Assembly: GCA_002729175.1 (NCBI GenBank)
Contig: PBTS01000076.1
Span: 1 to 17,730, forward strand
Direction of reading: 5' to 3'
DNA from: Fidelibacterota bacterium
GTDB taxonomy: Bacteria > Fidelibacterota > Marinisomatia > Marinisomatales > S15-B10
Length of the DNA stretch: 17,730 nt
The notes below the pieces were generated by a model that was not told the origin of the DNA, searched no databases, and saw only the letters and a program-made list of their open reading frames with translations. Below are positions 3,371 to 17,730 of the stretch, piece by piece (positions within the stretch are counted from its first letter, which is position 1; every line of letters starts with the position of its first letter). Position numbers and translations under genes: made by a program.

Positions 3371-4666
3371 ATGGCAGACTTTTTCGATAAACTTATAGAA
3401 CAAGAACCTTACACCCAGTACACCCTGGATATGTTTTCCAGGAGCGCTGGGAAGGATCACGCTGAAATCGATCAGTTTGATAAATGGCGTCAAATGGTCA
3501 CAGGCGCCAACAAGTACACTTTTGAAGTCTCTCATCTAGCGGCTCAGCGGCCGGAGATCTCGGTTCGTCGGGAGAGCGGCGATGAGTATAATCTCATCAG
3601 CTTTGCCAGCTACAACTATCTAGGTTATTCATATCATCCCGATGTAGTTGATGCCGCAAAAAAAGCACTGGATCTTTACGGATTGGGTGCCACCGGTTCA
3701 CCCCTACTGAATGGCACTTTTGAAATCCACAATGAACTTGAGGATAAGATTGTACAATTCTTTGGACAAAAGGATTATGGTGTATCTCTCTTTTCTTCAG
3801 GTTATGGAGCAAATCTGGGCGTCATCTCAGCTTTCATTCATAAGGGAGATCATGTGGTTCTTGACCGCTCTTCGCATGCCTCGCTTATCGATGGTGCTAT
3901 TCTCTCACAGGGAAAAATCTCTCTCTTCCGTCACAACGATGCTGAATTCCTGGAAAAGGTACTGAAGCGCATCGATTACAAAAATTCTCGAATATTGGTC
4001 TGTTGTGAAGGGGTCTACAGCACGGATGGAGACTACGGAACACTGAAGGATATCATTGAGGTATCCAAGAAATACGGCGCCGCTGTGCTCGTTGATGAAG
4101 CACATTCTCTTCTTGTGGCAGGAGAAAACGGACGGGGTGTCTGCGAAGAACAGAATGTTTTGGCAGATGCTGATATGATCATTGCCACTTTCAGTAAATC
4201 TTTCGGCGGAGTAGGTGGTTGCGTCTATGCAAAAAAGAAAATTACCAACTACATGAATTACTATGCCAGATCTCGCATGTTCTCCTGTGCTCTGGATCCA
4301 GGTGTGACAGGAGGCCTCATCAAATCCATTGAACTTGCCGGAGGCACCGATGGAAGTGAGAGAAGAAAACGGATTATCGATAATGCAGACTATCTTAGAT
4401 CCAAGCTGAAGGGACATGTTGACATCGGCACTTCATCCAGCTGGATTATACCGATTATTTACGGAGATGAAAGACTCACCCTCCCCCTGAGTGATTATCT
4501 TCAGCGAGAAGGGATCGATATTTCACTCATGATGTTCCCGGCGGTACCGAAAAACCGGTCAAGAATCAGGGCTTTTGTTACATCCGAGCACACAAATGAA
4601 CAACTGGACAAGGGTGCAGATATTATTCTCCGTGCTGCTGATAAATACAACTTTTTGATAGGATAA
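3371..4666 (+). CDS. PLP-dependent alpha-oxoamine synthase (serine palmitoyltransferase / 8-amino-7-oxononanoate synthase family)
   Basis: Motifs SYNYLG, GATGSPLLNGT, SGYGAN, HASLIDG, FRHND, EGVYSTDGD, VDEAHS and TFSKSFGGVGG (PLP lysine). YNYLG, DEAHS and TFSKS look more SPT-like than BioF-like. Confidence 0.9.
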   Translation: MADFFDKLIEQEPYTQYTLDMFSRSAGKDHAEIDQFDKWRQMVTGANKYTFEVSHLAAQRPEISVRRESGDEYNLISFASYNYLGYSYHPDVVDAAKKALDLYGLGATGSPLLNGTFEIHNELEDKIVQFFGQKDYGVSLFSSGYGANLGVISAFIHKGDHVVLDRSSHASLIDGAILSQGKISLFRHNDAEFLEKVLKRIDYKNSRILVCCEGVYSTDGDYGTLKDIIEVSKKYGAAVLVDEAHSLLVAGENGRGVCEEQNVLADADMIIATFSKSFGGVGGCVYAKKKITNYMNYYARSRMFSCALDPGVTGGLIKSIELAGGTDGSERRKRIIDNADYLRSKLKGHVDIGTSSSWIIPIIYGDERLTLPLSDYLQREGIDISLMMFPAVPKNRSRIRAFVTSEHTNEQLDKGADIILRAADKYNFLIG

Positions 4667-4672
4667 TAGGTC

Positions 4673-5365
4673 ATGAAACATACTCCCGGTGAAGACCTTT
4701 TTGTTTGGGAATTCGATTTTGCACTGACCACTTTCTTCGAAGTGGAGACCGATCTGTTTCAGCAGCACATCCCTTCTCGGCTTAGTCTTATGGAAGTATC
4801 TCCGGGTGTAGGACTGGTAAATATTACCGCCTTCAATTTCCCTGAGGGTGCTCTTGGTGAACTTCCCGAGTTCCAGGAGCTTATTTTCAGTGCCATCGTT
4901 TCGCCTGATCTTTCTCGGGGAGTACCAAAGTTTGCTATGTATGTCCTTTCACTCGGTAGCACCTGCCAGGAACATTTAGATCACAGTGCTGATTATTACA
5001 AGCTTCCCATACATGGACTGCTTACCGACACTAAAATCGATTCAGAAGCAATCGCTATTGATTATTCAGACAGTGACGGTCAGATCCTGGCTATGAACAA
5101 CTGCTCACCCACTACCAATTTCAGGGATGAGGAAAGATACTTTCAGGCGTTTACTTCAGATGGTGACAATCTCACTATTGCAGACTGTTATATCGAAGCT
5201 CAACTCTTTGAGCATCAGTTGACTGAGGATGCAGGAAAATTGAATGTGCACCCTTTCCTGAAGAACATTGATTTCGATCTTGGGGATCCCCTCCCCTATC
5301 TACAGATGATTGGCCAGCCTGGGAAGACCGGAAAACAGTTCTACTACCGTCCAACCTCTTTCTAA
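4673..5365 (+). CDS. Hypothetical protein, possibly acetoacetate decarboxylase/DUF2071-like fold
   Basis: 230 aa ORF starting 6 nt after the oxoamine synthase. The pattern (IPSRLSL...GVGLVNITAF...EFQELIFSAIV...MYVLSL...YYKLP) resembles ADC/DUF2071 proteins; the family call is tentative. Confidence 0.6.
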   Translation: MKHTPGEDLFVWEFDFALTTFFEVETDLFQQHIPSRLSLMEVSPGVGLVNITAFNFPEGALGELPEFQELIFSAIVSPDLSRGVPKFAMYVLSLGSTCQEHLDHSADYYKLPIHGLLTDTKIDSEAIAIDYSDSDGQILAMNNCSPTTNFRDEERYFQAFTSDGDNLTIADCYIEAQLFEHQLTEDAGKLNVHPFLKNIDFDLGDPLPYLQMIGQPGKTGKQFYYRPTSF

Positions 5366-5429: not shown

Positions 5430-6359
5430 ATGGATCATAAGAAAAACGCTCTTAATGCAATAGGAAACACCCCTCTTGTCCGTTTAAAAAAGGTTGTTCC
5501 CAGTCACTCAGCTGAGGTTTGGGTAAAACTCGAAGGGGGTAATCCTACTGGTTCATACAAAGATCGTATGGCATTATCCGTCCTTACTAGTGCTATTGAA
5601 AGAGGAGAATTATCTCCGGGCGATACTGTAATTGAATACACTGGAGGGAGTACCGGGACAGCATTGGCTTTTGTCTCAGCTGTTCTTGGTCTAAAATTTG
5701 TTGCAGTATTTTCTGATGCATTTTCAAAAAGTAAACAACAGGAAATGGAAGCTTTTGGTGCCGAGGTCACTGTCATAAAAAGTCAAGGTGGAGTTATCAC
5801 ACCAGACTTGATCCAACAAATGAAATTACGGGCTTATGAAATGGCGGAAAAACCTAACACTTACTATGCAGACCAATTTGGATCTCCTGAAGTTCGATCT
5901 GGATACAAGCCTCTGGGTATGGAAATAGCACAGAAACTTGATGGAGAACTTGATCTTTTTTGTTCAGCGGTAGGAACTGGGGCTGCCTTGATGGGATCTT
6001 ATGACGGTCTGTTAGAATCACATGTACAAGTAGACCTAGTAGCATTTGAGCCTTTGCAATCCCCATTTCTTACAACAGGGAAAGGCGGACCCCATCTTGT
6101 TGAGGGAATTGGTGTAGGATTTGAACCTCCATTTCTGGACCGATCTAAGTTAAAAGAAATTAGAGCAATTGATCAAGAACACGCTTTCAAAATGTGCCAA
6201 CGTCTAGCCAGAAAAGAAGGAATATTTTGTGGAGGATCAACTGGTTTGAATGTTGTAGCAGCAATCGAGCTTGCAAAAGAAATTGGACCCGGCAAACGGA
6301 TAGTCACTCTTGGTTGCGACAATGGGATGAAATATCTCGGTAGCCATATATATATGTAA
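5430..6359 (+). CDS. Cysteine synthase family PLP-dependent enzyme (CysK/CysM-like, atypical substrate loop)
   Basis: IGNTPLVRL, KLEGGNPTGSYKDR (PLP lysine), VGTG, EGIG, ARKEGIFCGGSTG and CDNGMKYL. The canonical EPTSGNTG reads EYTGGSTG. Confidence 0.9.
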   Translation: MDHKKNALNAIGNTPLVRLKKVVPSHSAEVWVKLEGGNPTGSYKDRMALSVLTSAIERGELSPGDTVIEYTGGSTGTALAFVSAVLGLKFVAVFSDAFSKSKQQEMEAFGAEVTVIKSQGGVITPDLIQQMKLRAYEMAEKPNTYYADQFGSPEVRSGYKPLGMEIAQKLDGELDLFCSAVGTGAALMGSYDGLLESHVQVDLVAFEPLQSPFLTTGKGGPHLVEGIGVGFEPPFLDRSKLKEIRAIDQEHAFKMCQRLARKEGIFCGGSTGLNVVAAIELAKEIGPGKRIVTLGCDNGMKYLGSHIYM

Positions 6360-6441
6360 AGATGTAATTCGAGTAGTGGTCTGGTTTCCTTTATTTCTGG
6401 AAATTATTTCCATCCAATATTTTTTGTTTATTTGAACCTCA

Positions 6442-6500
6442 GTGGGTACTTCTTTCATCCCGACCGTCCCCCCGTCACATATCAGGTTGAGATTGGGAAA
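6442..6500. repeat. Dispersed intergenic repeat, copy 1
   Basis: GTGGGTACTTCTTTCATCCCGACCGTCCCCCCGTCACATATCAGGTTGAGATTGGGAAA; aligns by eye with the copies at 10881, 11183, 12453 and 13115. Confidence 0.9.
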
Positions 6501-6580
6501 GAGGATGACCGATATGAGTCCGGAATACCAGATAAAAGTTTCTAATAAATATTAAGTTGTTTCTTTTGAGGGTTGTTGTC

Positions 6581-7954
6581 TTATGAATAGTCCAGCCCGA
6601 ATCCACTCAATTTCTTTTTGCATCCTTCATACAGGTCCAGGTATTTCTGCATCGGCTGCACCGTTTCCATATCGTAGCATTCATCGAACCGCTTGCCAAG
6701 AGGCGCATCGGATATCCGCGATTCGTACAAATCCAAAAGTCGCTTCACGATTTCGTTGGCGTGAGTCCGTGTCATACCCTGCCGGGCTGCAAGATGCCCT
6801 GCTTCCGCTCCGATGCGCGCCTCCATTCCTGTTGCCCGTTCCGGATGACGATTGCTTGCCACGGCCACCAGATTCAAATCTCCACCAGACACAGTGGATG
6901 CCAAAACATTGGCCACAATCTCGTAGACCACCATCTCGGTACATGGCCCGGCTGCGGCGAAAGGACTGATGGTAACCAGGAGATGGGTATTTCGGCTCAA
7001 AGCCTGTGTAGCGATGCTGATCAGCCACAGAAGCTCCCGCGTGGTATTGCAGAAGTGGTGGATATGCAGCGGGAAGCAGCAGTGCCACTGCGCCTCAAAC
7101 GCGAGCAACCCCAGGAAATGGTGCGCCACAAGCACCACGGCCGTCGATTCCGGTCCGCCGGCATACCCGCCCATCAACGGTCCGTACAGCCCGTACTTGT
7201 TGTGTCCGCTGTTCCGAAGAAACGCGACCTTTTTCACACGTTCATAGTCTATCTTCAACTCGGATATAGCAGCGATGGCCAGTCCGTCATTCGGCAGCAC
7301 GCCGAAGTCAGCCTGAACAGCGGCGAGGATGGCATCGGTCTGTTCAGCATTGGAAACCAGATTATGAATTCCGATCCCGGGCCGTCCGGCTGCCTTGGCC
7401 GCCTCCCGCAGTTTAATTACGTTCCAGATAGCGGCCTCTACCTCCTGGGGGGTCCCCGACTTGATGGGGCGACCATGAACGGTCTGGCTAAAAGCGCTGG
7501 AAAAGGTGTCGGCCAGGGGTTCCTGGGCGAAACTTTGTACCATAGGAACAAACCGCTCTTCGGCCACCGGTGCACCGACGGGTGTGCATAGACAAAACGG
7601 CGGCCGAGTGTCCTCGATACTCCGGCAGGCCATCACCGCCAGATCCTTTCCCTGTCCGTAGGTCACGGTGGTTGGGGCATGTTTCAGCGCCTGTTCCACT
7701 TCCTTGCGGGTAAATTTCAAAACACGACCTGTATCCCGGCAGAACATGCCCAGCTCCAAAAACAGATCGAGACCTGCCTGGTACACCCGATCCACCAGAT
7801 CCTCATCGGAAGGGACTACCTGCTCCGGATCATACCGGATGTCATACCGCTCGACGATCTCGCGGGCGGTCTGCGCCACTTTCCAGTCAAATTCCTCTTC
7901 TTTCACAAGCGTCCCGCTTTCGCTGCGACCGATCACATCCCAGAAACTGATCAT
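6581..7954 (-). CDS. mtmB: Monomethylamine:corrinoid methyltransferase family protein (MtmB homologue 1, non-pyrrolysine)
   Basis: 457 aa. MtmB motifs AGRPG.G, ELKID, GGYAGG, AGPCTEM and TGMEAR, with C-terminal GKRFDECYD. His197 (CAT at 7366-7364) occupies the Pyl position. Confidence 0.9.
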   Translation of the reverse strand: MISFWDVIGRSESGTLVKEEEFDWKVAQTAREIVERYDIRYDPEQVVPSDEDLVDRVYQAGLDLFLELGMFCRDTGRVLKFTRKEVEQALKHAPTTVTYGQGKDLAVMACRSIEDTRPPFCLCTPVGAPVAEERFVPMVQSFAQEPLADTFSSAFSQTVHGRPIKSGTPQEVEAAIWNVIKLREAAKAAGRPGIGIHNLVSNAEQTDAILAAVQADFGVLPNDGLAIAAISELKIDYERVKKVAFLRNSGHNKYGLYGPLMGGYAGGPESTAVVLVAHHFLGLLAFEAQWHCCFPLHIHHFCNTTRELLWLISIATQALSRNTHLLVTISPFAAAGPCTEMVVYEIVANVLASTVSGGDLNLVAVASNRHPERATGMEARIGAEAGHLAARQGMTRTHANEIVKRLLDLYESRISDAPLGKRFDECYDMETVQPMQKYLDLYEGCKKKLSGFGLDYS

Positions 7955-8610
7955 GATACCTCACCTCCCCGCTTCTCCTGCATCAGACTTCTGGCAACTT
8001 CTACAGCTTTTGTCGCGTTTTCACCATAGCCGTCAGCGCCGATCTCTGCCGCCCACTCGGCCGTCACCGGTGCGCCGCCGATCATGACACGGTATTTGTC
8101 CCGCAGCCCCAGTTCACCCAGAAGATTGATAAGGTCAGGTTGATAGGTCATGGTGGTGGTCAACAGCGAGGAGGCGCCAATGATATCAGCGCCCAGCTCC
8201 TCCGCCTGCTCCACAAACCGGCGGACAGGTACGTCATAACCCAGATCATGGACCGTAAAACCGTCCGCCTGCAGCATGATTTTTACGATATTTTTACCGA
8301 TTTCATGTACGTCACCCTGGATGGTTCCCAGGATGATGGTGCCCTGGCTTCCGTGCCCCGGGCGCTCCAGAAGAGAGGGTCTGAGTACCTCCATGGCAGC
8401 ACTCACGGCGTTGGCCGAGAGCATTACCTCGGCCAGAAAACATTCCAGAACAGCGAACCTGTCACCGACGACGTGCATCCCTTTTGTATACCCCTCCTGA
8501 ATAGCCTGGACAGGATCTACACCCTCGTCCAGGGCGACCCGGGCAAGGGCCGCGCACTGCTCTTTATCCCCTTTAATCGTGGCTTCCGCCATCTGTTCAA
8601 AGAGATTCAT
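7951..8610 (-). CDS. Corrinoid (B12-binding) protein, MtmC/MtbC/MttC family
   Basis: GTIQGDVHEIGKNIV (DxHxxG), SSLLTTT, MIGGAP and IGADGY; N-terminal cap helices; ATGA overlap with mtmB-1. Confidence 0.95.
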   Translation of the reverse strand: MNLFEQMAEATIKGDKEQCAALARVALDEGVDPVQAIQEGYTKGMHVVGDRFAVLECFLAEVMLSANAVSAAMEVLRPSLLERPGHGSQGTIILGTIQGDVHEIGKNIVKIMLQADGFTVHDLGYDVPVRRFVEQAEELGADIIGASSLLTTTMTYQPDLINLLGELGLRDKYRVMIGGAPVTAEWAAEIGADGYGENATKAVEVARSLMQEKRGGEVS

Positions 8611-8649
8611 CTTTGCGTTTACCTCCAGATGAGGTTTCCGGAGAGACTC

Positions 8650-10029
8650 TTAATACGGAAACGCCACCCCCATGGTGGCTATCTCGTCCTTCACCTTATT
8701 GAACATATCCAGGTACCAGGACATAGGGCGCGAAACGCGTACGTCATAACACTCCTGGAACGGCTTGCCCTTGGGTGCGTCGGCGATCCGGTCTTCGTAT
8801 TTCTCCAACATTTTCAGGGTGATATCGTTTGCCTGCTCCCGGGACATTCCCTGCTGTGCCGCGGCGTGTCCCACCTCACATGCCAGACGCGCTTCTAGCG
8901 GCGTAGCATAGTTACGATATTTGTTGTGCGCTACAGCGGCTTCCCACAGGTGTCCACCGGACACGGTACTGGCAAGTCCGTGGGCTGCCGCCTCCCACAA
9001 CACCATTTCGGTTCCGGAGCCGGCATTCAGGAAGCCGTTAGATGTGGACAGGATGTCACTGTTGCGGCTAACGGCCTGTTGCGTCACACTCACCAGCCAC
9101 AGCATCTCCCGCCCGCTATTGGAGGTGAAGTGAAGATGGAACGGGAAACTCTGCTGGAAATTCGCCTGATAGATGGTCAGTCCAGCCAGGTGATAGGCTG
9201 TTTCCAGAATGGCTGTGCCCTCCGCGCGGCCGGCATAGCCGCCGTAAATAGATCCGCTCAGACAACCGATGAAACACCCGAACTGCATGCAGTGGACCAC
9301 CTTATTTAGCAATTTATTGTCGATCTTCAACTCGGTCAGTGCGCCTATAAGCCGCCCATCGGTGTATCGTACCCCCCACTCATCATTACTTACCGCAACC
9401 TGGCCTGTGTCGGACTGGGCCGTACCCACGGCCACCAGGAACATTCCCGGCTTCCCTGCCAACCTGACCGCCTGCCGCAATCCCATCGCATGTTCCACCA
9501 CCCCGGCCATCTCAGTCGGCGCGCCGGACTTGATTTTGAGTCCCATACTTTCCTCCAAAATCGGCGCACATACGCCGTCGGCCAGCGGCTCCTGGATGTA
9601 GGCAATGGACATCGGTAGAAAAATTTCCTCATCACAGGTGATGTCAGGACTGAAAATACAGAACGGCGGCGCATCGGCCTCCGGCACACGACTCTTCCAC
9701 AGGCGAGCATCCTTCCCCGCGCCAACGATGTAGCGACCGGGAGTGTGATACAGCGCCTCCTGCAGTTCTGAGGCGTCCACCAAAATCCGGCGGTGGGTAT
9801 CCACGTTAAGTACGCCTACCTCTAAAAAAAACTCTACCGCCGCCTGCCAGACACGGTCGGCCAGGTCGTCATCCGCCGGAACGGGCATGTCAGAGTCATA
9901 GACAATGTCGTACTTCTTAATCACCTCCTGCATTTTGGGCATGAAAATCTCATAGGTGAATTCGTCGTCTTCACAGAATGGACCGGAGTTCGCCCGTTCT
10001 ACGATTTCCCACATCTTATACGGTAGCAT
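8650..10029 (-). CDS. mtmB: Monomethylamine:corrinoid methyltransferase family protein (MtmB homologue 2, non-pyrrolysine)
   Basis: 459 aa. AGKPGM, ELKID, GGYAG, AGSGTEM, TPLEAR and GKPFQECYD. Val199 (GTG at 9435-9433) occupies the Pyl position. Confidence 0.9.
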   Translation of the reverse strand: MLPYKMWEIVERANSGPFCEDDEFTYEIFMPKMQEVIKKYDIVYDSDMPVPADDDLADRVWQAAVEFFLEVGVLNVDTHRRILVDASELQEALYHTPGRYIVGAGKDARLWKSRVPEADAPPFCIFSPDITCDEEIFLPMSIAYIQEPLADGVCAPILEESMGLKIKSGAPTEMAGVVEHAMGLRQAVRLAGKPGMFLVAVGTAQSDTGQVAVSNDEWGVRYTDGRLIGALTELKIDNKLLNKVVHCMQFGCFIGCLSGSIYGGYAGRAEGTAILETAYHLAGLTIYQANFQQSFPFHLHFTSNSGREMLWLVSVTQQAVSRNSDILSTSNGFLNAGSGTEMVLWEAAAHGLASTVSGGHLWEAAVAHNKYRNYATPLEARLACEVGHAAAQQGMSREQANDITLKMLEKYEDRIADAPKGKPFQECYDVRVSRPMSWYLDMFNKVKDEIATMGVAFPY

Positions 10030-10678
10030 CGTTTGTCCTTTTCTCTGCCATCACACGCTCCAATATTTCAACCGTCACGCCGGCATTCTCTCCCCAGCTA
10101 TCGGCGCCGCATTCCGTCACCCACGCTTGCGTTACCGGCGCACCGCCGACGATCACGTGGTACTTCTCACGGATCCCCTTCTCCTCAAGGATCTTGACAA
10201 TGTCCTGCTGCCCAGGCATCGTCGTGGTCATCAGTGAGGACACACCGATGATATCGGCTTTCACTTCCTCGGCTTTGCGCACAAAATCCAGAGCGTTGAC
10301 ATCAAATCCCAAATCATATACCTCGAAACCCTGGGCCTTGAGCAGGCAGACCACCACGTTCTTGCCGATCTCATGCACATCGCCTGCGATCGTTCCAATA
10401 ACCATCGTGCCCTTCTTCTGGACGGACATGGCCGATTTCTGAAGCTCCGGCTCCAGTATTTCCATCACCGCCTGCATGGCCCGCGCGGACAGCATCAGTT
10501 CCGGAAGAAAAATTTCCATACGAGCGAACCGTTCCCCAATCTCGCGCATCCCCACAGTCAACGCTTCGATGATCTCCTCCACATCGGTGCCTGCCTGAAC
10601 TATCTGCTCTGCTGAAGTTGCAGCCTCGCCTTCTTTTCCGTCCTGTACAACCTCAACCAGTGATTGTATTGATATCAT
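10016..10678 (-). CDS. Corrinoid (B12-binding) protein, MtmC/MtbC/MttC family
   Basis: GTIAGDVHEIGKNVV, SSLMTTT, IVGGAP and FLPEL; overlaps the start of mtmB-2 by 14 nt. Confidence 0.95.
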   Translation of the reverse strand: MISIQSLVEVVQDGKEGEAATSAEQIVQAGTDVEEIIEALTVGMREIGERFARMEIFLPELMLSARAMQAVMEILEPELQKSAMSVQKKGTMVIGTIAGDVHEIGKNVVVCLLKAQGFEVYDLGFDVNALDFVRKAEEVKADIIGVSSLMTTTMPGQQDIVKILEEKGIREKYHVIVGGAPVTQAWVTECGADSWGENAGVTVEILERVMAEKRTNDATV

Positions 10679-10797
10679 TGTTGCAGTAACCCCTTGTTAC
10701 ATTTGAAAGACCATATATCACTGATCTGGATTTCTAACAGTTCTGTCTTTTCTATAATCATTTTCTATCTATTAATAAAATTAATCTACCATTTGAA

Positions 10798-10821
10798 CCT
10801 TATAAGTAAAAATTTATAAGG
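10798..10821. promoter_or_regulatory. Palindrome CCTTATAA-N8-TTATAAGG, candidate operator
   Basis: Perfect 8-bp inverted repeat about 120 bp upstream of the corrinoid/MtmB operon, in AT-rich intergenic DNA. Confidence 0.35.
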
Positions 10822-10880
10822 ACAATAGATATACCCCGCATCTATGGATAGTCGGGTACGGGGGCTATAGACATAAACTC

Positions 10881-10911
10881 TCACGATGTGGGTGTTTCTT
10901 TGATCCTGACC
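10881..10911. repeat. Dispersed intergenic repeat, copy 2 (short)
   Basis: TCACGATGTGGGTGTTTCTTTGATCCTGACC, 8 nt beyond the DUF2164 stop codon. Confidence 0.8.
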
Positions 10912-10919
10912 ACACCTTA

Positions 10920-11159
10920 TTATAATATTGGTTTTGTCAAAATATAGATCTCATCAATCAAAGTTTCAGTCCTTTCATTAATGAGACTGTGTACATCTGA
11001 AAGTGCCTCATTATAGAAAAATCCTCCAATCTTTTCCGCAAAGAAATCAAGAAGAAATTCAGCATCTAAATTCCCGATTTCCTGGTCAAGATTCTCTCTA
11101 AACCATTCTTGAATTTCTTGAGTGATTTTTACTTTATTTTCTTTGGACAATTTTATCAT
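10920..11159 (-). CDS. DUF2164 family protein, 79 aa
   Basis: Family pattern I.LSKE.K...I..IQ.WF.E.LD.EIG.LDAEFLLDFF.E.IG..FYN.AL.D; GGAGG RBS. Confidence 0.85.
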   Translation of the reverse strand: MIKLSKENKVKITQEIQEWFRENLDQEIGNLDAEFLLDFFAEKIGGFFYNEALSDVHSLINERTETLIDEIYILTKPIL

Positions 11160-11182
11160 GAGTCTACCTCCAAAAAATTATA

Positions 11183-11242
11183 TCACAATGTGGGGCTTCT
11201 TTCATCCCCGACCGTCCCCCCGTCAGTTTCAAGGATGAGATT
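11183..11242. repeat. Dispersed intergenic repeat, copy 3
   Basis: TCACAATGTGGGGCTTCTTTCATCCCCGACCGTCCCCCCGTCAGTTTCAAGGATGAGATT. Confidence 0.9.
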
Positions 11243-11281
11243 TTAGGTTAAGAAGCATCACGTTAAAATTGAATGCATCCC

Positions 11282-12430
11282 TTACTTTATGACCGGTTTG
11301 CCATCTCTGACCCAAATCTGATCCCCCACCGTCACGGTTGCATCGGTAAAAAAGTTCCAGCGGACATAAGGTCGTTCACCACCTACCGCCCCGCCAAGCT
11401 CTGAATTATCGCCCAACGAAAGACGAACGACTCCCGCACCGTAACCATAATAGGGGACCCACGGATTTCGTTCCGGCACCGCCAATTTGGGATTAAAACC
11501 CAGTGCAAACTCTCTGAATCGACGTCCCACATCGCCCGCCTGTTCCATCTCGGCTTCAACATTTTCCTTTCCTGACTTCGCACTGACTTTCACTACAATT
11601 CCATCAACAATCTCAAGCTTGAGACCGATGACCGGACCTCCGTTCCACTGGGATGGTGGAAACGCAATGGTGCCGCGAACAGATTCCTCCAAAGGGGCGA
11701 CACGGACCGCTCCCGCCGGCAGTTCAATTTCCCGGTCAATCAGGATCACACCACGGTCTGTCCGCGCCTTTGACGCATCGCCATCCTGTCTGTTTACCGG
11801 TCGGTCACCAATTCGGAAACGGATATCTGTTCCAAGCGGTGTGGTCACATGCACTTCCCTGTTTCGCATCGCCCGTTCGAAACGGAGCTGAATTTTTGCC
11901 AGCGTGTCATAGTCACTGTTCAGCACAGCCCGCTGGTATAACGCGTCTATGTCCCTCGGTTCGGGCATCGGCTGACCCGGGAGGGGATATGCGCTTCGGT
12001 TTTCCAACCAGTGAAAATGGACTGTGCGGCTCTTACCAGATCTCAATATATCTTGCATTGCGGCATAGGCAGGATGTTGTGGAGTTGCTCCCGGCAGCAT
12101 CACCGACGCATCAATATCTTTGAACATTTTCCGGTACGCTTTTCTGGAAGGTTCCGCGCCGCGCTTGATAACATCCGGATCCAACTCGCTTGATGGAAGA
12201 ACGTCGATCACGCCGAGATCAACCGCTCCCGCTTTCATCACCTCATAACGCAGAGGTGGAATCAGATCGCGGAACATATCCGGATGGGCCACAAACAGAA
12301 CCTTCTCTCCCTGCCCCACCTCCATGCGCTCGACTATCACACGTGCCAACTCCGGCCAGTCCAGTCTTAGGCGCTCTTGGGCAGAGGAAAAGCTGAAAAG
12401 AATAAGCAGTATGGCTAGGGGCTTTTTCAT
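11282..12430 (-). CDS. Secreted peptidase M29 (aminopeptidase T/AmpS)-fold protein with apparently degenerate metal site
   Basis: Signal peptide MKKPLAILLILFSFSSA. M29-type segments VHVTTPLGTDIRF, LPAGAVRVAPLEESVRG, EFALGFNP, LSLGDNSELGG and terminal ATVTVGDQIWVRDGK. Confidence 0.75.
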   Translation of the reverse strand: MKKPLAILLILFSFSSAQERLRLDWPELARVIVERMEVGQGEKVLFVAHPDMFRDLIPPLRYEVMKAGAVDLGVIDVLPSSELDPDVIKRGAEPSRKAYRKMFKDIDASVMLPGATPQHPAYAAMQDILRSGKSRTVHFHWLENRSAYPLPGQPMPEPRDIDALYQRAVLNSDYDTLAKIQLRFERAMRNREVHVTTPLGTDIRFRIGDRPVNRQDGDASKARTDRGVILIDREIELPAGAVRVAPLEESVRGTIAFPPSQWNGGPVIGLKLEIVDGIVVKVSAKSGKENVEAEMEQAGDVGRRFREFALGFNPKLAVPERNPWVPYYGYGAGVVRLSLGDNSELGGAVGGERPYVRWNFFTDATVTVGDQIWVRDGKPVIK

Positions 12431-12452
12431 TTATTTCCTCCAAAAAAATACG

Positions 12453-12517
12453 TCACTATGTAGGTGCTTCTGTCATCCTGATCATCCCCCGTCATTTACC
12501 AGCTTGAGATTGGGAAA
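12453..12517. repeat. Dispersed intergenic repeat, copy 4
   Basis: TCACTATGTAGGTGCTTCTGTCATCCTGATCATCCCCCGTCATTTACCAGCTTGAGATTGGGAAA. Confidence 0.9.
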
Positions 12518-12619
12518 ATGGTTGAGAAAGCTGATGTAAACGCATAATGGGGAAACTACCTCTCTGGAGGCAAACTAAGGAGAGATAGCGGGAAAATCAA
12601 TCAAGGAAGGAAGGTCTAG

Positions 12620-12654
12620 AAACAAAAAAGCCCCTTCCTGGGGCTTTTTTGTTT
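12620..12654. terminator. Rho-independent terminator (bidirectional form)
   Basis: AAACAAAAAAGCCCC-TTCCT-GGGGCTTTTTTGTTT: perfect 15-bp inverted repeat with a GC core and T-tracts on both strands, 21 nt past the stop of the 123-aa gene. Confidence 0.9.
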
Positions 12655-12675
12655 ACAAGTAAGTATATTTTTGAA

Positions 12676-13047
12676 CTACGATTTTCTACTATTTACGAAA
12701 AATAATATAGAAAAAACAAAATTCATTCCCGTGCTAATGAAGTTTGGTGCGGTAGATGGTGATATTCCCACAGCAATGTCATACACTCCCATAACACCAA
12801 ATAGTCCCCAAAAAATCGCAGTTACCATCCCAAAATTTGAGAGATTTTCTCCAGCCCACATTGGGAGAGTCCAATGAAGTGTGGCAAGTGCGGCCATTGC
12901 CATGCCCATATACCTCATTAAAACTCTTAAGTCAGGCGATGAATTCCAGCCAAATGTTTCTTCAACCATCGAAGGTAAGAACCACATTTGCAAAACCCAC
13001 AATACCATGAAACCAGCTGCAAGCTTAAAAATTAATGGTAGGTTCAT
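12676..13047 (-). CDS. Hypothetical integral membrane protein, 123 aa (about 4 TM helices)
   Basis: Four hydrophobic segments; GAGGAG RBS; followed by a terminator. Confidence 0.85.
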   Translation of the reverse strand: MNLPLIFKLAAGFMVLWVLQMWFLPSMVEETFGWNSSPDLRVLMRYMGMAMAALATLHWTLPMWAGENLSNFGMVTAIFWGLFGVMGVYDIAVGISPSTAPNFISTGMNFVFSILFFVNSRKS

Positions 13048-13114
13048 ATTGACTCCTCATTGTTAGTTAATCGATAAATGACTCGAGATTTAATCAAATT
13101 TCAAAATAATTATG

Positions 13115-13143
13115 TCACGATTGGATGCTTCTTTCATCCCGAC
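13115..13143. repeat. Dispersed intergenic repeat, copy 5 (short)
   Basis: TCACGATTGGATGCTTCTTTCATCCCGAC, 12 nt beyond the stop of the 92-aa gene. Confidence 0.85.
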
Positions 13144-13155
13144 AGTTACAAAAGA

Positions 13156-13434
13156 TTATTGTGGTGGTTTCATCTCATTGAGGGTAAAAAATTCATGATA
13201 CTCAATATATGGTTCCACCATTTTTTTAAATTCTGGGTCTGATGCTCGTTCCGCCATCGCTGCCATATCAACATTTTTCATGATTATGATTGCAGTATTA
13301 TCATTAGCCTTCCCATATAGGAAATTACCATTATTTACCTGCTCCTGATTATCTTCATGAGAAAGAAATAAATTTTCCCATGTTTCATAATCACATTTTA
13401 AATGGGCAATTGATGCCATATTTACTTGTTCCAT
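13156..13434 (-). CDS. Hypothetical protein, 92 aa (possibly a small dimeric alpha/beta-barrel-like fold)
   Basis: GAGGA RBS and a protein-like sequence (CDYETWENLF...YGKANDNTAIII...); the fold suggestion is tentative. Confidence 0.75.
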   Translation of the reverse strand: MEQVNMASIAHLKCDYETWENLFLSHEDNQEQVNNGNFLYGKANDNTAIIIMKNVDMAAMAERASDPEFKKMVEPYIEYHEFFTLNEMKPPQ

Positions 13435-13522
13435 GTTTTTATCCTCTACCTTATCATTATTTTGATAAAAAGGAAAATTAGATTATTAAAATTTCCCCTT
13501 CATGTGCCATAAGGAGTTTATA

Positions 13523-13666
13523 ATGGCTGAAGTCTATTATAGCTACGGCATTACCACGCAAATTGCGTCAATCAGAGGCAGGAGGGTGATTATTTCAGGA
13601 ATAAGGGAAGTAGTGGTAGCTAATCAGGAAGTACAGTTACGAAAAAGCCTTAATTATTCCCAATAG
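13523..13666 (+). CDS. Possible small ORF, 47 aa
   Basis: AAGGAG 6 nt before the ATG: MAEVYYSYGITTQIASIRGRRVIISGIREVVVANQEVQLRKSLNYSQ*. No recognisable family. Confidence 0.3.
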   Translation: MAEVYYSYGITTQIASIRGRRVIISGIREVVVANQEVQLRKSLNYSQ

Positions 13667-13750
13667 TCAAAACATATCCTACCCATATAGTAGGGGTCAT
13701 GTCACACCAGGCCGCTGGTTTGAGTAGCTATTACACTTCAGATAAATATC

Positions 13751-15181
13751 TTAATCACTCACTATATCTTCATATTTCGCAATAATTGCATCGCCCTTTT
13801 CAATAAGGTCATTTGCAATCGGCTCAACCTGGTGCGTATCTAATATGCCCTTCACTATTTTATTGGCTTCAGCAGGCAGTTCCTGCTCGTCCATTTCCAG
13901 CAGGTCAAATTTTCCTCTTTCCCAGGATGAGAGTTCGCCTCTAAGATATTTCAGAGTGTGGGGATGCATCAGGAAGTCACGTCCATGCCCAACTTCTTTA
14001 ACAGCATCCAAACCTATCTTCTCTTCTGATATTTCTACTTCATTCATATAATTTTTGGAGCAATCCCACATATAGGAATCGACAATAAACTGTTCAAAAG
14101 AGATTCCTTTAGCGGAATCAACACACCCATAACCGGTAGCGAGGTCCGAGCCGCCCATTATCCCTGCAAGTTGACTAAAAGGCGTGAACAATCCTGAAAC
14201 GCTGGCTTCTATCCCGTCACCCCATCCGCCATCAGCAACAAGAGATGGCAGGTTGTATTTTTTTGCCATTTGTGCTGCCCCAATACATAAATAGATCTTT
14301 TCAGGCGTATCATAATCTATGCTACCTGTTGCCATATTCATTGGCCCTGACTCGGAACAATAAATGTGGGGTGCACCAGGCGCCGCTATCTGTGAGATTA
14401 CAATACTTCCCAGGTTTTCAGTGTTGATATTTACCAACATTCCCGCTACTGGAAGAGGACAAGTTGCACCACCATTTGACATGGACATGGAAGCGACGGG
14501 GATTCCGGCTTTTGCCAGTTCTACCTGCGCTTCAATGGAGCCTTGCTCATAGGTCAATGGTGCGATAGGGCATATAATTACGGAAAAGAGGGGTCGTCTT
14601 TTTAATTCTTCTTTTCCGCCTGCTATAAGAGCTGCCAGCTCAATCTGCACCTTTGCAATTTCAGAACTTTGCGCTGTAACGCCTTGAACATGCTTGGAAG
14701 TATTCAGCATGGTCGTCCACAATTCATGGGGACCATGGGCAAGAGGTGAAACATCTGTTGCGGTTAATGCTGTCCAGAGAAAATCAAGTGAATCAACTGC
14801 ATCTCCAAGTCTTGTAAACGCAGCAATATCCTTTCTGGTGGAATTACGATACTCTCCAGTTTCATAATCTTTAACAAAAACTGCAAGTCCGCTGGTAGTC
14901 ATCCACGGATATGTTTTAGTAGGAACTTTTAGATCATGCTTCGGATCGCGGGCGCACAGTGTGAACTCTTTTTGAACGCTTTCAAGAGCCTGGTCAACAA
15001 TCATTTCAGGAATTTTGGCAACCATCGCATTATAATCCACACTCGCTCCATTCTTCTCAAGCAATTCAAGAATAGGCTTGCTGAGAACTTTAATACCAAT
15101 TTCCTGCAGGCTTTTTATACTTTGAGCATGAATCAGATTCATCTCTTGTTGGTATAAAAAAACTGTTTTTGCCTTGGCCAT
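13751..15181 (-). CDS. mttB: Trimethylamine methyltransferase (MttB) superfamily protein, non-pyrrolysine
   Basis: 476 aa. IH..S...L.EIG, LCARDP, NTSKHV, PIAPL, GATCP.PVAG, Q.AAPGAP, AAQMAKKYNLP, SFEQFIVD and VGHG.DFL.HPHT. No amber codon; the Pyl region reads LPSLVADGGW. Confidence 0.92.
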   Translation of the reverse strand: MAKAKTVFLYQQEMNLIHAQSIKSLQEIGIKVLSKPILELLEKNGASVDYNAMVAKIPEMIVDQALESVQKEFTLCARDPKHDLKVPTKTYPWMTTSGLAVFVKDYETGEYRNSTRKDIAAFTRLGDAVDSLDFLWTALTATDVSPLAHGPHELWTTMLNTSKHVQGVTAQSSEIAKVQIELAALIAGGKEELKRRPLFSVIICPIAPLTYEQGSIEAQVELAKAGIPVASMSMSNGGATCPLPVAGMLVNINTENLGSIVISQIAAPGAPHIYCSESGPMNMATGSIDYDTPEKIYLCIGAAQMAKKYNLPSLVADGGWGDGIEASVSGLFTPFSQLAGIMGGSDLATGYGCVDSAKGISFEQFIVDSYMWDCSKNYMNEVEISEEKIGLDAVKEVGHGRDFLMHPHTLKYLRGELSSWERGKFDLLEMDEQELPAEANKIVKGILDTHQVEPIANDLIEKGDAIIAKYEDIVSD

Positions 15182-15242
15182 TTTTATACCTCCATGAAAT
15201 TTGTCCAGATTGGGTTCTCCATATCAGAACAGCAAAAATATT

Positions 15243-15380
15243 TTAAAAAGCATCCACAAGCACTATGATATTAGGCGAAAATCCCGGATCTATTATCATG
15301 CATTCTTGTGCTTGGGACGATTCTGTCAGCACACAACAATTTGTTTCAAAATCACCAAGTACTAAACGTTCAATTTCCAC
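15243..15380 (-). pseudogene. 5' stub of an MBL-fold metallo-hydrolase (glyoxalase II-like)
   Basis: AGGAG RBS and GTG start: MEIERLVLGDFETNCCVLTESSQAQECMIIDPGFSPNIIVLVDAF*. Matches the typical N-terminus (..LG.FETNC..., IIDPG) but ends before HxHxDH. Confidence 0.75.
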
Positions 15381-15408
15381 GATTACTCCTATACTGTTTC
15401 AAATCCAT

Positions 15409-15519
15409 TTACCCGGCAAGAATGTCACCGGTACTTGGGTTTTCCACGCCTAAGTAGCCGGTGTTTTCTGCTCCTCACCATGGACCGTTAACGTAATTCT
15501 TGACATTTGTTAAACTCAC
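15409..15519 (-). pseudogene. 5' stub of an aldehyde dehydrogenase
   Basis: GTG start: MSLTNVKNYVNGPW*GAENTGYLGVENPSTGDILAG*. This is the typical ALDH N-terminus (NYVNG.W...V.NP.TGE.LA), with an internal TGA at 15477-15475 and truncation after 36 codons. Confidence 0.75.
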
Positions 15520-15562
15520 AATAATTCCCTTCTTCTATGAGTGCATACACCTAACAGACTGT

Positions 15563-16936
15563 TTAAAACTTGAATCGGACACCTAATTCCCCTAATTCCG
15601 CTTTGATTTTTTTATACAATTGTTTGTATTCCAGAATTGGCTGTTTTGTTTTCATATTCCAACACTGTTCATAGGTTTTGCCATTTGGCGCATTTGGAAT
15701 ATCATCTTCATATTTTGCCAATAATTTTTTAACAATCTCATTTCCTTGTGAACGAGTCATCCCGATTACACCATGCGCAATTTCCGAAGCCCATTTTGGT
15801 TCCATCGGCGTGAAATGATCAACTTCAACGGCCTTTGCAACACCTCCAAATTCTATAGATGCTCCGGAAACAACAGCGTTTATCACAACCGCTGCGATTT
15901 CATACAGGCACATTTCCGTCATCGGACCGGCTGCCACATAATTAAGAATAAAGAAGGGGAAATGACTGTTTCTGCTAATAGCCTGTGCACTAGCGCTATT
16001 GGCCCATATAACAGCCCTATCACTTGTGCATCCATGATTGACATGAATTGGAAATGTGAGTTGACAAGAACCTTTCATTAAGAGTATAGAATTAAGATGG
16101 TAAGCAACATTAGTTACAGCAGTTCCTTCCGGCCCGCCACAATAACCACCTAAAATGGGTGCGGATTCTGCAACTATATGACCTCCTAAATTCATAACAA
16201 AAGCAATCTCATTTAATCTTTCAAAATTAATCTTCATCTCCGCTATAGTACCGATTAACCAACCATCAGTTGGTCTAAGGCCAAATTGACTTCCTGCAAT
16301 TTTAGCCGTATCCGAACCTGCAGAAGCTATTGCATTCATAATAGGCAGACCCGCACGGCCACCTTTTCGCAAAGCTGACCTGGCTAAAGTACTGGATCGC
16401 ATGCAGGCTAGGATTTCCAAAGGACTTTTGGTACGAACAAGTCTTCCTTCAATATACTTAATCGTCGGAGTGGTGATGGAATCGGCCAATGGAAGAAATG
16501 ATGCATAGGCCTCTAAAATACTTTCAAATAGCGTTTCATTGGACACGGCTGCTCCACCAGCTCCTATAAAGCACCACGGATCAATATCGCTTTCGGGCTT
16601 ACGAGCTACCAGAGCCTTGGCATCACTTCCTTCGCCAAATACCGGTCGACTAGTAGCTTCGGCCAAACCTTCCAGAATTTCTTCCTCGGTAAATTTTATT
16701 ATACGTTCTGTATCGACACAGTAAATTCCTACATTGGCAAATAGATCTATTCCTGCCTTAAAAACTCTGTCTGCTAAATCGTCATCACAGGACAAAGGAT
16801 TTTCAGGATCATACTTAATTTCATATTTTTTTATTAATTCCCTTAGCTTTGGAACAAAGATATTTAAATCAAAGTCTTTTTCAGAAGTGAAGGGCCCTTC
16901 CAATGCCCTATCTATGATTTCTATAAGATTTACCAA
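15563..16936 (-). CDS. mtmB: Monomethylamine:corrinoid methyltransferase family protein (MtmB homologue 3, non-pyrrolysine)
   Basis: 457 aa, TTG start. GGRAGL, EMKIN, GGYCGG, AGPMTEMC, GVAKA, TPME and GKTYEQCW. Met200 (ATG at 16339-16337) occupies the Pyl position. Confidence 0.9.
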   Translation of the reverse strand: MVNLIEIIDRALEGPFTSEKDFDLNIFVPKLRELIKKYEIKYDPENPLSCDDDLADRVFKAGIDLFANVGIYCVDTERIIKFTEEEILEGLAEATSRPVFGEGSDAKALVARKPESDIDPWCFIGAGGAAVSNETLFESILEAYASFLPLADSITTPTIKYIEGRLVRTKSPLEILACMRSSTLARSALRKGGRAGLPIMNAIASAGSDTAKIAGSQFGLRPTDGWLIGTIAEMKINFERLNEIAFVMNLGGHIVAESAPILGGYCGGPEGTAVTNVAYHLNSILLMKGSCQLTFPIHVNHGCTSDRAVIWANSASAQAISRNSHFPFFILNYVAAGPMTEMCLYEIAAVVINAVVSGASIEFGGVAKAVEVDHFTPMEPKWASEIAHGVIGMTRSQGNEIVKKLLAKYEDDIPNAPNGKTYEQCWNMKTKQPILEYKQLYKKIKAELGELGVRFKF

Positions 16937-16948
16937 ATTTTTATATCC

Positions 16949-17620
16949 TTATGATTTTTGTTTTTTTGATAAAAATTCTAAAGCAAGTGCAACTGCTCTT
17001 TCAGCGTTTTCCCCATATATATCAGCTCCAATCTCATCAGCCCATTTTTGGGAAGTTGGGGCTCCGCCTATCATAACTAAATATTTTTCTCTTTGGCCTA
17101 TTTCTTTTAGAATGTCGATAAGATCTTTCTGGGATGCCATAGTAGTAGTCAAGAGCGATGACAAGGCTATAATATCAGCATCAACCCTACCAGCTTCCTC
17201 TATAAAAGTAGAAGTGGATACATCTTCACCGATATTGTGGACATTAAATCCCGCTGTTTCTAACATAATAGCAACAATATCTTTGCCGATTTTGTGTATG
17301 TCACCTTTAACTGTGCCAATCAGAACAGTACCTTTATTGAGACTTTTGCTTTTATCTGAACTGTCCGATAAAATATGAGGTTTTAAGATAGCCATTGCTG
17401 AAGTGAATGCTCCCGCAGCCATCATAAGTTCTGGTAAAAAAATTTCAAGTTTGTTGAATTTCTCTCCTACAACTTCCATCCCCTTTGACAAACCGTTCTC
17501 GATACCCTCCAAAGGACTATAATTTTCCTTAATAAGCAGCGTGGCAGCATCTTTACCTTTTTGCACATCCATCTCTACAACGCAATCGAACAGGTCTTTA
17601 AAAATATCCTCTTTATTCAT
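16949..17620 (-). CDS. Corrinoid (B12-binding) protein, MtmC/MtbC/MttC family
   Basis: GTVKGDIHKIGKDIV, SSLLTTT, MIGGAP and FLPEL. Start moved from 17638 (TTG) to the ATG at 17620 because AAGGAG lies just upstream of it. Confidence 0.95.
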   Translation of the reverse strand: MNKEDIFKDLFDCVVEMDVQKGKDAATLLIKENYSPLEGIENGLSKGMEVVGEKFNKLEIFLPELMMAAGAFTSAMAILKPHILSDSSDKSKSLNKGTVLIGTVKGDIHKIGKDIVAIMLETAGFNVHNIGEDVSTSTFIEEAGRVDADIIALSSLLTTTMASQKDLIDILKEIGQREKYLVMIGGAPTSQKWADEIGADIYGENAERAVALALEFLSKKQKS

Positions 17621-17655
17621 AGCATATACTCCTTTCAAATAGTTTCTTTTCTATG

Positions 17656-17730
17656 TTAAAGTTCAAGAACATTTCTCTCCCGCTTAAAAGGAACATCTCC
17701 CGGATCAGGTTCATCAAACTCACGGGCAAA
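17656..17730 (-). CDS. 3' end of a probable trimethylamine/dimethylamine/histamine dehydrogenase-like flavoenzyme (Old Yellow Enzyme family)
   Basis: The frame from the window edge reads FAREFDEPDPGDVPFKRERNVLEL*. This resembles the recalled C-terminal pattern A.E.(D/E)....(V/I)P(F/Y)(K/R)RE of TMADH and histamine dehydrogenase. Only 24 residues are visible. Confidence 0.6.
   Translation of the reverse strand, partial: FAREFDEPDPGDVPFKRERNVLEL

Follow-up and report, generated by a model that had tools for sequence, protein, structure and literature searches.

We analysed a 17,730 bp stretch of DNA from a Fidelibacterota bacterium. This stretch, which we call the window, is an entire contig (C82) of the host genome G000, itself 93% complete, and its right end carries a set of minus-strand genes around MtmB-3, a member of the MtmB methyltransferase family that is free of pyrrolysine (Pyl). 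Read from 17730 to 13751, open reading frames (ORFs) and Pfam matches gave the order flavoenzyme 3' end, corrinoid protein, MtmB-3, a stub of a (methyl)malonate-semialdehyde dehydrogenase (MMSDH) gene, filler DNA, and MttB. The flavoenzyme gene (17656..17730) is represented by its last 24 codons and the stop, with the remainder past the contig end. It is followed by the gene for a 223-amino-acid corrinoid protein with a DxHxxG motif (16949..17620; PF02607 and PF02310) and by the MtmB-3 gene (15563..16936; 457 amino acids, TTG start; PF05369, E 4e-99). The 380 bp between MtmB and MttB hold the MMSDH pseudogene stub (15416..15519), recognised by tblastn to the MMSDH of the related locus L005 as about the first 35 codons, and 167 bp of foreign filler (15249..15415) with a ribosome-binding site and a 45-codon ORF (15380-15243). 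The last gene encodes a Pyl-free methyltransferase of the MttB superfamily (13751..15181; 476 amino acids; PF06253, E 1e-61). An original prediction, made from the letters alone, had claimed this order with the stub as an aldehyde dehydrogenase (ALDH), and the ORFs, profiles and tblastn confirmed it. Its metallo-beta-lactamase label for the 45-codon ORF found no match in Pfam, NCBIfam or the PDB; the 45-residue fragment ends ahead of where the HxHxDH motif would begin, and among the loci searched, copies of this same stretch of DNA were the filler's only matches. The right boundary of the gene set lies at 13678..13750 on the same strand, where homology to L005 and L093 stops at 13687, within a small hairpin. 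This hairpin is terminator-like but not above chance (8 such sites vs 6.2 ± 2.4 in shuffles), a scan for promoters and terminators gave no usable signal, and an Rfam search gave nothing above gathering score.

For comparison we collected 148 loci, 76 from a metagenome scan (best 80 of 182 matches) and 72 from a genome scan. Metagenome locus L110 matches window positions 5566-17730 at 99.7% identity and extends past the contig end. The part from the flavoenzyme end through MttB is complete in L089 and L110 and is present from inside the corrinoid gene in L088. Positions 2454-6422 of L110 are spanned by single contigs in two DNA runs of different studies, and the stretch is present in 20 of 24 listed runs from 14 studies, mostly seawater or vent, 6 of them recorded as RNA. 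The arrangement is not an artefact of a single assembly. Contigs from the RNA runs cover the entire stretch and some cross gene borders; such contigs are blind to strand, level and co-transcription, so they are no proof of an operon. Within G000, a search for an extension of the contig gave no overlapping contig, no PF00724 match and no second piece of the flavoenzyme, and a DNA search of 40 relatives gave short non-coding matches only.

The 24 residues at the window end alone had a weak match to histamine dehydrogenase (HADH; 6de6, E 0.61) and no Pfam match. In L110 the sequence right of 17730 continues into an open 693-amino-acid ORF with PF00724, PF07992 and PF22620, which bears out the earlier claim that the upstream gene resembles trimethylamine dehydrogenase (TMADH) or HADH. 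The 3' end of an APC-family (amino-acid) permease gene precedes it. The best PDB matches of the protein were 3k30 (729 bits), 6de6 (691), 6l6j (670), which we take to be 6-hydroxypseudooxynicotine oxidase, and TMADH 1djn (549). The L110 protein has the old yellow enzyme (OYE) barrel and two Rossmann domains of the family, with Cys31 for FMN linkage, Tyr170, His173 and the Fe-S motif cysteines Cys349/352/355/367. Of the residues Tyr60, Trp264 and Trp355, which we take to form the aromatic bowl of TMADH, it keeps Tyr60, with Tyr in place of Trp264 and Asp in place of Trp355. The HADH residues described in PMC10180351 are Gln60, Glu74, Asn110, Trp263, Asp265 and Asp354 (Rhizobium numbering); Asp354 alone is kept, and Tyr, Gln, Ser and Tyr occupy positions 60, 74, 110 and 263. 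Because the predicted pocket is a hybrid, with TMADH-like Tyr61/Asp70/Trp106, HADH-like Asp359 and Tyr replacing Trp263/264, the flavoenzyme is not a typical member of either the HADH or the TMADH group. It shares the FMN-linking Cys, the Tyr-His pair, the four-Cys Fe-S motif and the three-domain layout with HADH (3k30, 6de6), TMADH (1djn) and 6-hydroxypseudooxynicotine oxidase (as described in PMC5500553), and would be expected to cleave a C-N bond oxidatively; it differs from HADH in lacking Gln60/Glu74/Asn110.

An identical flavoenzyme protein is annotated from Marinimicrobia, in a cluster of 23, and the gene is intact in several Marinimicrobia metagenome-assembled genomes (MAGs). In 301 genomes of the phylum, a set that had no positive control, no flavoenzyme reached E 1e-60. 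Across the L110 stretch, contigs from four runs leave none of the 30 bins uncovered. Depth in these contigs roughly doubles across the permease and at either end of the flavoenzyme gene. In three of the four runs a second sequence, at about the same depth, also continues behind that gene (L110 2500), and one flavoenzyme allele in the runs lacks 1353 internal bases (L110 670-2024). There are probably two copies or alleles of the permease-flavoenzyme unit, likely from a duplication, and this would account for the contig break.

MtmB-3 passes PF05369 (333 bits vs a cut-off of 25), and the corrinoid protein scores slightly below the TIGR02370 cut-off (209 vs 215 bits). Compared with the Pyl-dependent monomethylamine methyltransferase MtmB/MtmC of Methanosarcina barkeri (1nth, 1l2q), MtmB-3 is a full-length homologue (E 4e-66) with a like corrinoid partner, but Met200 (ATG) aligns with Pyl202 and there is no amber codon. 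No in-frame TAG occurs in MtmB-3 or MttB, and both genes are open under table 11. Pyrrolysine read-through was rejected, as it yields no longer frames for these genes. Met stands at the Pyl202 column in 100, 100 and 97% of sequences across the three closest of the identity bins defined below, and the MtmB-3 clade conserves Met200, Cys122 and Trp226. The original prediction looked to the gene neighbours for a hint at the substrate of Pyl-free MtmB. One member of this group now has a function, namely MtqB, a Pyl-free MtmB homologue described as demethylating choline and tetramethylammonium (PMC13044021). According to the same source, most of the roughly 1,060 MtmB-family members have no assigned function, and the MtqB clade conserves one Met and one Cys close to the ligand, given without residue numbers, in a pocket signature that also has an aromatic element. 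Another Pyl-free MtmB of unassigned role is noted in PMC9768040, and PMC10418091 has nothing on MtmB. By description, MtqB/MtqC of Methanococcoides methylutens Q3c is one of the nearest likenesses, a Pyl-free MtmB homologue adjoining its cognate corrinoid protein as a proposed N-demethylase (PMC13044021). By contrast, the genes studied here are bacterial, do not involve coenzyme M, are flanked by MttB and amine-catabolic genes, and would act on a three-carbon amine.

The window holds two further intact pairs of corrinoid protein and Pyl-free MtmB on the minus strand (6581-10678; GC 56%), which are 36% identical to MtmB-3. In L142, an ORF with a match to the dimethylamine-methyltransferase profile PF09505 (4353-5399; profile positions 2-353 of 463) directly follows a Pyl-free MtmB, and its end stop could be amber.

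MttB passes PF06253 (209 bits vs a cut-off of 25) and falls below the TIGR02369 cut-off (354 vs 525 bits). Pyl334 and Tyr364, key residues of the Pyl trimethylamine methyltransferase (PMC9842639), are Gly and Thr in an alignment to 7xcl. In a pairwise alignment to 9yce, the columns of MtgB Tyr97, Arg312, His348 and Phe356 are Ser, Leu, Thr and Ala, and Leu stands at the Arg312 column in all 8 MttBs aligned from cassettes of this kind. As described in PMC13080624, Arg312 is kept in every characterised member with an acidic substrate, where it binds the acid group, and R312L abolishes MtgB activity. Thus, this MttB shares the Pyl-free MttB superfamily with the betaine demethylases MtgB, MtcB, MtpB and MtyB but is probably not a betaine demethylase, and the missing Arg312 points to a non-acidic amine substrate. 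For the same reason, beta-alanine betaine was downgraded as a sole substrate.

The counterpart of the window in an Aminicenantes MAG, L005, is 88-95% identical in three nucleotide blocks and carries a longer set of genes, namely APC permease, flavoenzyme, M14 peptidase, PuuC-like ALDH, corrinoid protein, MtmB, MMSDH, class III aminotransferase, and MttB. The PuuC-like ALDH has NF007352 as its best model and is below that cut-off; MMSDH is above the TIGR01722 cut-off in L005 (493 vs 448.5) and in L008. Relative to L005, the window misses 5.1 kb between flavoenzyme and corrinoid gene, with the deletion junction at about 17643-17650, and 2.7 kb between MtmB and MttB. It has lost PuuC, MMSDH and aminotransferase and has retained flavoenzyme, corrinoid protein, MtmB and MttB. 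What remains of MMSDH is its first 35 codons, 77% identical to the L005 type (E 5e-9) with a stop at codon 15. The suggestion that the stub belongs to the ALDH family holds, but its supposed role after the flavoenzyme does not. It comes from a CoA-acylating MMSDH, partner of the lost aminotransferase, and the ALDH expected to take the aldehyde from the flavoenzyme is the separate PuuC-like gene, wholly deleted in the window.

MMSDH and aminotransferase are lost in seven other close loci as well. In L005 coordinates, the left breakpoints are 11375 (L122), 11381 (L093), 11398 (L095 and L155), 11489 (L116), 11510 (L096 and L156) and 11521 (window), and the start of MttB is retained in all of these except L116. 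The differing stub lengths show that the two genes were lost rather than gained; some of these loci are single metagenome contigs in which misassembly is possible. In L115 and L133, an MMSDH stub just after MtmB is followed by an MMSDH of another (Dehalococcoidia-type) family, complete in L115 and cut by the contig end in L133, so that one MMSDH appears to have been replaced by another at the same place. By these comparisons, the locus is a cut-down version of a cassette that moves horizontally and is shared with sediment microbes of other phyla; it lies within an accessory-gene array of a Marinisomatota species, and the direct adjacency of flavoenzyme and corrinoid gene in the window is derived.

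Grouping the 148 loci at 97% MtmB identity gave 122 groups; we counted the 85 whose flanks measure 4 kb or more and dropped the other 37. Neighbours were labelled by BLAST against references chosen from these same loci, and the bins were cut by identity, with a FastTree drawing as the only check. Kinship among the loci makes the counts below non-independent. The flavoenzyme stands beside MtmB in 4 of 10 groups at 85% identity or more (one being the window's species), 0 of 14 at 60-85%, 1 of 16 at 47-60% and 0 of 45 below; L095 and L122, which have a remnant or end of the flavoenzyme gene, are among the dropped groups. The conserved flavoenzyme association that had been claimed thus holds among the closest cassettes and hardly beyond them (1 of 30 groups at 47-85%). 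A class III aminotransferase occurs in 6/10, 6/14, 7/16 and 1/45 groups by falling identity (19/40 at 47% or more vs 1/45), MMSDH in 6/10, 4/14, 1/16 and 0/45 (11/40 vs 0/45), and an aldehyde:ferredoxin oxidoreductase (AOR) in 4/10, 3/14, 9/16 and 1/45 (16/40 vs 1/45). The 60-85% bin also has saccharopine-dehydrogenase-like (8/14) and CrtO-like FAD (4/14) enzymes. The neighbours in the distant bin (below 47%) are URO-D/MT2-like proteins (19/45), RACo (9/45), indolepyruvate oxidoreductase (7/45), histidine ammonia-lyase (6/45) and urocanase (5/45). At 50% identity, the aminotransferases fall into five sequence families and the MMSDHs into two, which suggests that these partners were recruited more than once. 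The steady partner of MtmB therefore seems, from gene content, to be deamination plus aldehyde oxidation, of which the HADH-like enzyme would be only one local version. An ancestral operon joining demethylation, deamination and aldehyde oxidation, as originally proposed, is supported by the larger operon in L005, but the argument for it leaned on the wrong partner. The idea that the neighbourhood hints at the substrate is borne out by the aminotransferase and MMSDH partners.

Our best reading, at a probability of about one half, is that these enzymes would demethylate an N-methylated aminopropyl amine that is degraded via beta-alanine. Several lines fit such a substrate. An operon of omega-transaminase and MMSDH is a demonstrated beta-alanine pathway (PMC4907197), PauC/KauB is reported to oxidise 3-aminopropanal to beta-alanine (PMC9397018), 1,3-diaminopropane is given as a secondary substrate of Rhizobium HADH (PMC10180351), a relative is described as freeing methylamine from an N-methylamine (PMC5500553), and the MttB lacks Arg312. 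With the full cassette, the imported substrate would be an N-methylated amine that carries an aminopropyl (three-carbon) arm, and MttB (without the Arg that binds betaine-type carboxylates) and MtmB would transfer N-methyl groups to the cob(I)alamin protein. The flavoenzyme would cleave the C-N bond to give 3-(methyl)aminopropanal, passing electrons to electron-transfer flavoprotein (ETF). The PuuC-like enzyme would then form (N-methyl)-beta-alanine, the aminotransferase malonate semialdehyde, and MMSDH acetyl-CoA, with demethylation either before or after oxidation. The full cassette has the amine dehydrogenase, PuuC/PauC-type ALDH, aminotransferase and MMSDH of the Pseudomonas route from polyamines through beta-alanine to acetyl-CoA (SpdH, PauC/KauB, omega-transaminase and MMSDH, as described in PMC9397018 and PMC4907197). 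It differs in that its dehydrogenase is of another family, B12 demethylases are added, and the window has lost the downstream half.

Several observations weigh against this reading. The flavoenzyme is rare beside the MtmB clade outside the closest cassettes, and PuuC is found in three loci only (L005, L106 and L122) among the 26 close loci mapped plus L005. The class III aminotransferase passes no specific family cut-off. The only Pyl-free MtmB that PMC13044021 gives as characterised acts on choline and tetramethylammonium. Some relatives at 54-67% identity have other neighbours, including hydroxyproline dehydratase (above cut-off) in L018, proline racemase in L118 and a choline-dehydrogenase-like Fe-dependent alcohol dehydrogenase in L012, which suggests that the wider clade is not monospecific. 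An intact flavoenzyme beside the corrinoid gene is seen in one assembly (L110) plus homologous cassettes, and phasing the two by depth leaned opposite ways in runs X3 and X5. Lastly, homology of the cassettes begins sharply just before the corrinoid gene and the upstream genes differ, so the flavoenzyme may be a separate module. In L018 (10001-14641), the MtmB gene (54%) is immediately upstream of hydroxyproline dehydratase and its activase, a candidate route for N-methyl-hydroxyproline.

This sharp start is one argument for a mosaic, in which a standard amine-oxidation unit of histamine, agmatine or diamine type (permease, flavoenzyme and perhaps PuuC) lies beside an independent unit of corrinoid protein, MtmB, MMSDH, aminotransferase and MttB, the two acting on different molecules and brought together by a deletion accident. 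In 10 of 26 close loci the homology begins at one base (L005 9270) upstream of the corrinoid gene, with AOR, an insertion sequence, PuuC or a flavoenzyme stub beyond it. No flavoenzyme is found in the 10 kb upstream in L091 or the 6 kb in L100, and an unrelated M14 peptidase separates the units in L005 and L090; the extra sequence that follows the flavoenzyme gene in three of the four runs fits as well. However, despite differing inserts, 6 of the 10 closest loci whose upstream sequence is informative carry the flavoenzyme or what is left of it there (L005, L090, L095, L110, L120 and L122, and not L091, L096, L100 or L160). The same adjacency occurs in a Chloroflexi MAG, L013 (MtmB 54%, flavoenzyme 55-56%), where the flavoenzyme pieces are duplicated, possibly by an assembly loop. 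Moreover, the saccharopine-dehydrogenase-like and CrtO-like enzymes noted above are other C-N oxidoreductases that hold that place in the clade. We regard a mosaic as possible but unlikely.

MtmB-3 could instead act like MtqB on choline or tetramethylammonium, with MttB and the flavoenzyme, as a di/trimethylamine dehydrogenase, processing small methylamines or amino alcohols. The one characterised precedent supports this, and Met200 and Cys122 of the MtmB-3 clade resemble the signature described in PMC13044021. The flavoenzyme retains TMADH Tyr60, and one source names the protein a di/trimethylamine dehydrogenase. MttB scores 191 bits to Pyl-MttB vs 151 to MtgB and lacks the carboxylate Arg, and two more distant members have choline-dehydrogenase-like genes as neighbours. 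By contrast, the Asp and Tyr at TMADH positions 355 and 264, the 180 bits by which the flavoenzyme scores higher to HADH, and the MMSDH and PuuC-like ALDH, for which a one- or two-carbon route would have no use, make this improbable. That the cassette is a relic from an anaerobe, eroding and non-functional in its host, is suggested by the two deletions, the pseudogene stub, the filler, the internally deleted flavoenzyme allele, the absence of MtmB from 300 other genomes of the phylum and a locus without a methyl acceptor, but is very improbable given four intact ORFs at dN/dS 0.25-0.33, a form kept in 20 runs of 14 studies (6 RNA), intact flavoenzymes in several Marinimicrobia MAGs, and reactivation and acceptor genes elsewhere in the genome.

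Searches for MtmB came up empty in all 60 relatives of the host and in 300 further genomes sampled across the phylum, two sets that overlap; of 60 relatives of the Aminicenantes MAG, a single one carried it. The left arm of the window is native, with 93-96% identity in two congeners, and third-position GC is 0.30-0.37 in the cassette vs 0.48 in a native neighbour gene. The synonymous distance between the cassettes of the window and L005 is 0.13-0.30 with dN/dS of 0.25-0.33, from which the cassette appears to be a recent transfer between phyla, in one direction or the other, that is still under selection.

G000 encodes a heme-copper oxidase, ETF and MetH. Its contig C46 (L077 850-7444) has an OprB porin, MttB, a homocysteine-methyltransferase domain, RACo, DUF1638 and a corrinoid protein, which together resemble the MtgBCE set of aerobic marine bacteria (PMC12478193), and contig C86 (L078 4145-5916) has a URO-D-family protein with a corrinoid protein. 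RACo is present in 5 of 40 relatives. Methylenetetrahydrofolate reductase was not found in G000 nor in two of three kin, no stand-alone pterin-binding methyltransferase or MtrH was found in G000, and carbon monoxide dehydrogenase/acetyl-CoA synthase was not found there by tblastn. The candidate parts of a three-component system would be divided, with two MT1 methyltransferases and a corrinoid protein in the locus, RACo and the homocysteine-methyltransferase domain on C46, and the URO-D-family protein with its corrinoid neighbour on C86. The methyl group would pass to homocysteine through this separate MtgE-like/RACo/DUF1638 module, and flow to methionine is probably the simplest fate in an oxygen-respiring host. 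The trimmed cassette would then serve methyl and electron harvest and not full carbon breakdown; distant MMSDH-like and aminotransferase genes in G000 (35% identity) might stand in for the lost pair. The original prediction had treated corrinoid demethylation as an anaerobic strategy, but it is not confined to anaerobes, since MtgBCD is described from aerobic marine bacteria (PMC12478193).

From its genes, the system is predicted to behave as a corrinoid N-demethylase of the three-component type, coupled to the breakdown of omega-amines, and by the features compared it falls outside the Pyl methylamine, MtgB, HADH and TMADH subfamilies. The literature searched, with subscription journals mostly outside it, gave no description of this gene set. 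The long-chain polyamines of diatoms are N-methylated. They are also described as persisting in diatom frustules of sediments (PMC6356823). A speculative extension, quite unlikely as a whole, is that the full cassette is an undescribed route for N-methylated aminopropyl polyamines (for example, breakdown products of diatom long-chain polyamines). Such a cassette would have jumped between sediment anaerobes and one oxygen-respiring Marinisomatota species of the water column, which would keep its methyl-harvesting half for methionine without MetF, and Pyl-free MtmB and Arg-less MttB would demethylate non-betaine amines.

We also noted other features of the window. On the plus strand at 3371-5365 is a gene for a class I/II pyridoxal-phosphate enzyme, which we take to be 8-amino-7-oxononanoate/serine-palmitoyltransferase-like, followed by a gene for a 230-amino-acid protein with no Pfam match that is conserved in the family. 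A lineage-wide co-oriented repeat occurs on the minus strand at 6442-6508, 11167-11242, 12430-12630 and 13096-13146, with a fixed 3' end and promoter-like -35/-10 elements. It sits just 5' of unrelated accessory genes and has about nine copies on G004:C11. An M29 peptidase gene (11243-12432) is located on other contigs in three congeners.

Among other MtmB loci, a tandem pair in the same Aminicenantes MAG as L005 (L188) lies beside a HisC-like aminotransferase, indolepyruvate oxidoreductase and acyl-CoA ligase, neighbours that hint at N-methylated amino-acid substrates. MtmB-2-like genes of Desulfobacterota (L030, L039, L045, L047, L048, L051, L055 and L071) occur with urocanase, histidine ammonia-lyase, a HutC-like regulator, MT2 and RACo, and are candidate demethylases of methylhistidine or hercynine.

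Together, these data suggest that subclades of MtmB may be readable from their gene neighbours. For a B12 enzyme family that is mostly unassigned, the cassette gives a short list of candidate substrates and five enzymes that can be expressed and assayed. The results also suggest that B12 demethylases spread from anoxic sediment to ocean bacteria that respire oxygen and could there become competitors for methylated amines.

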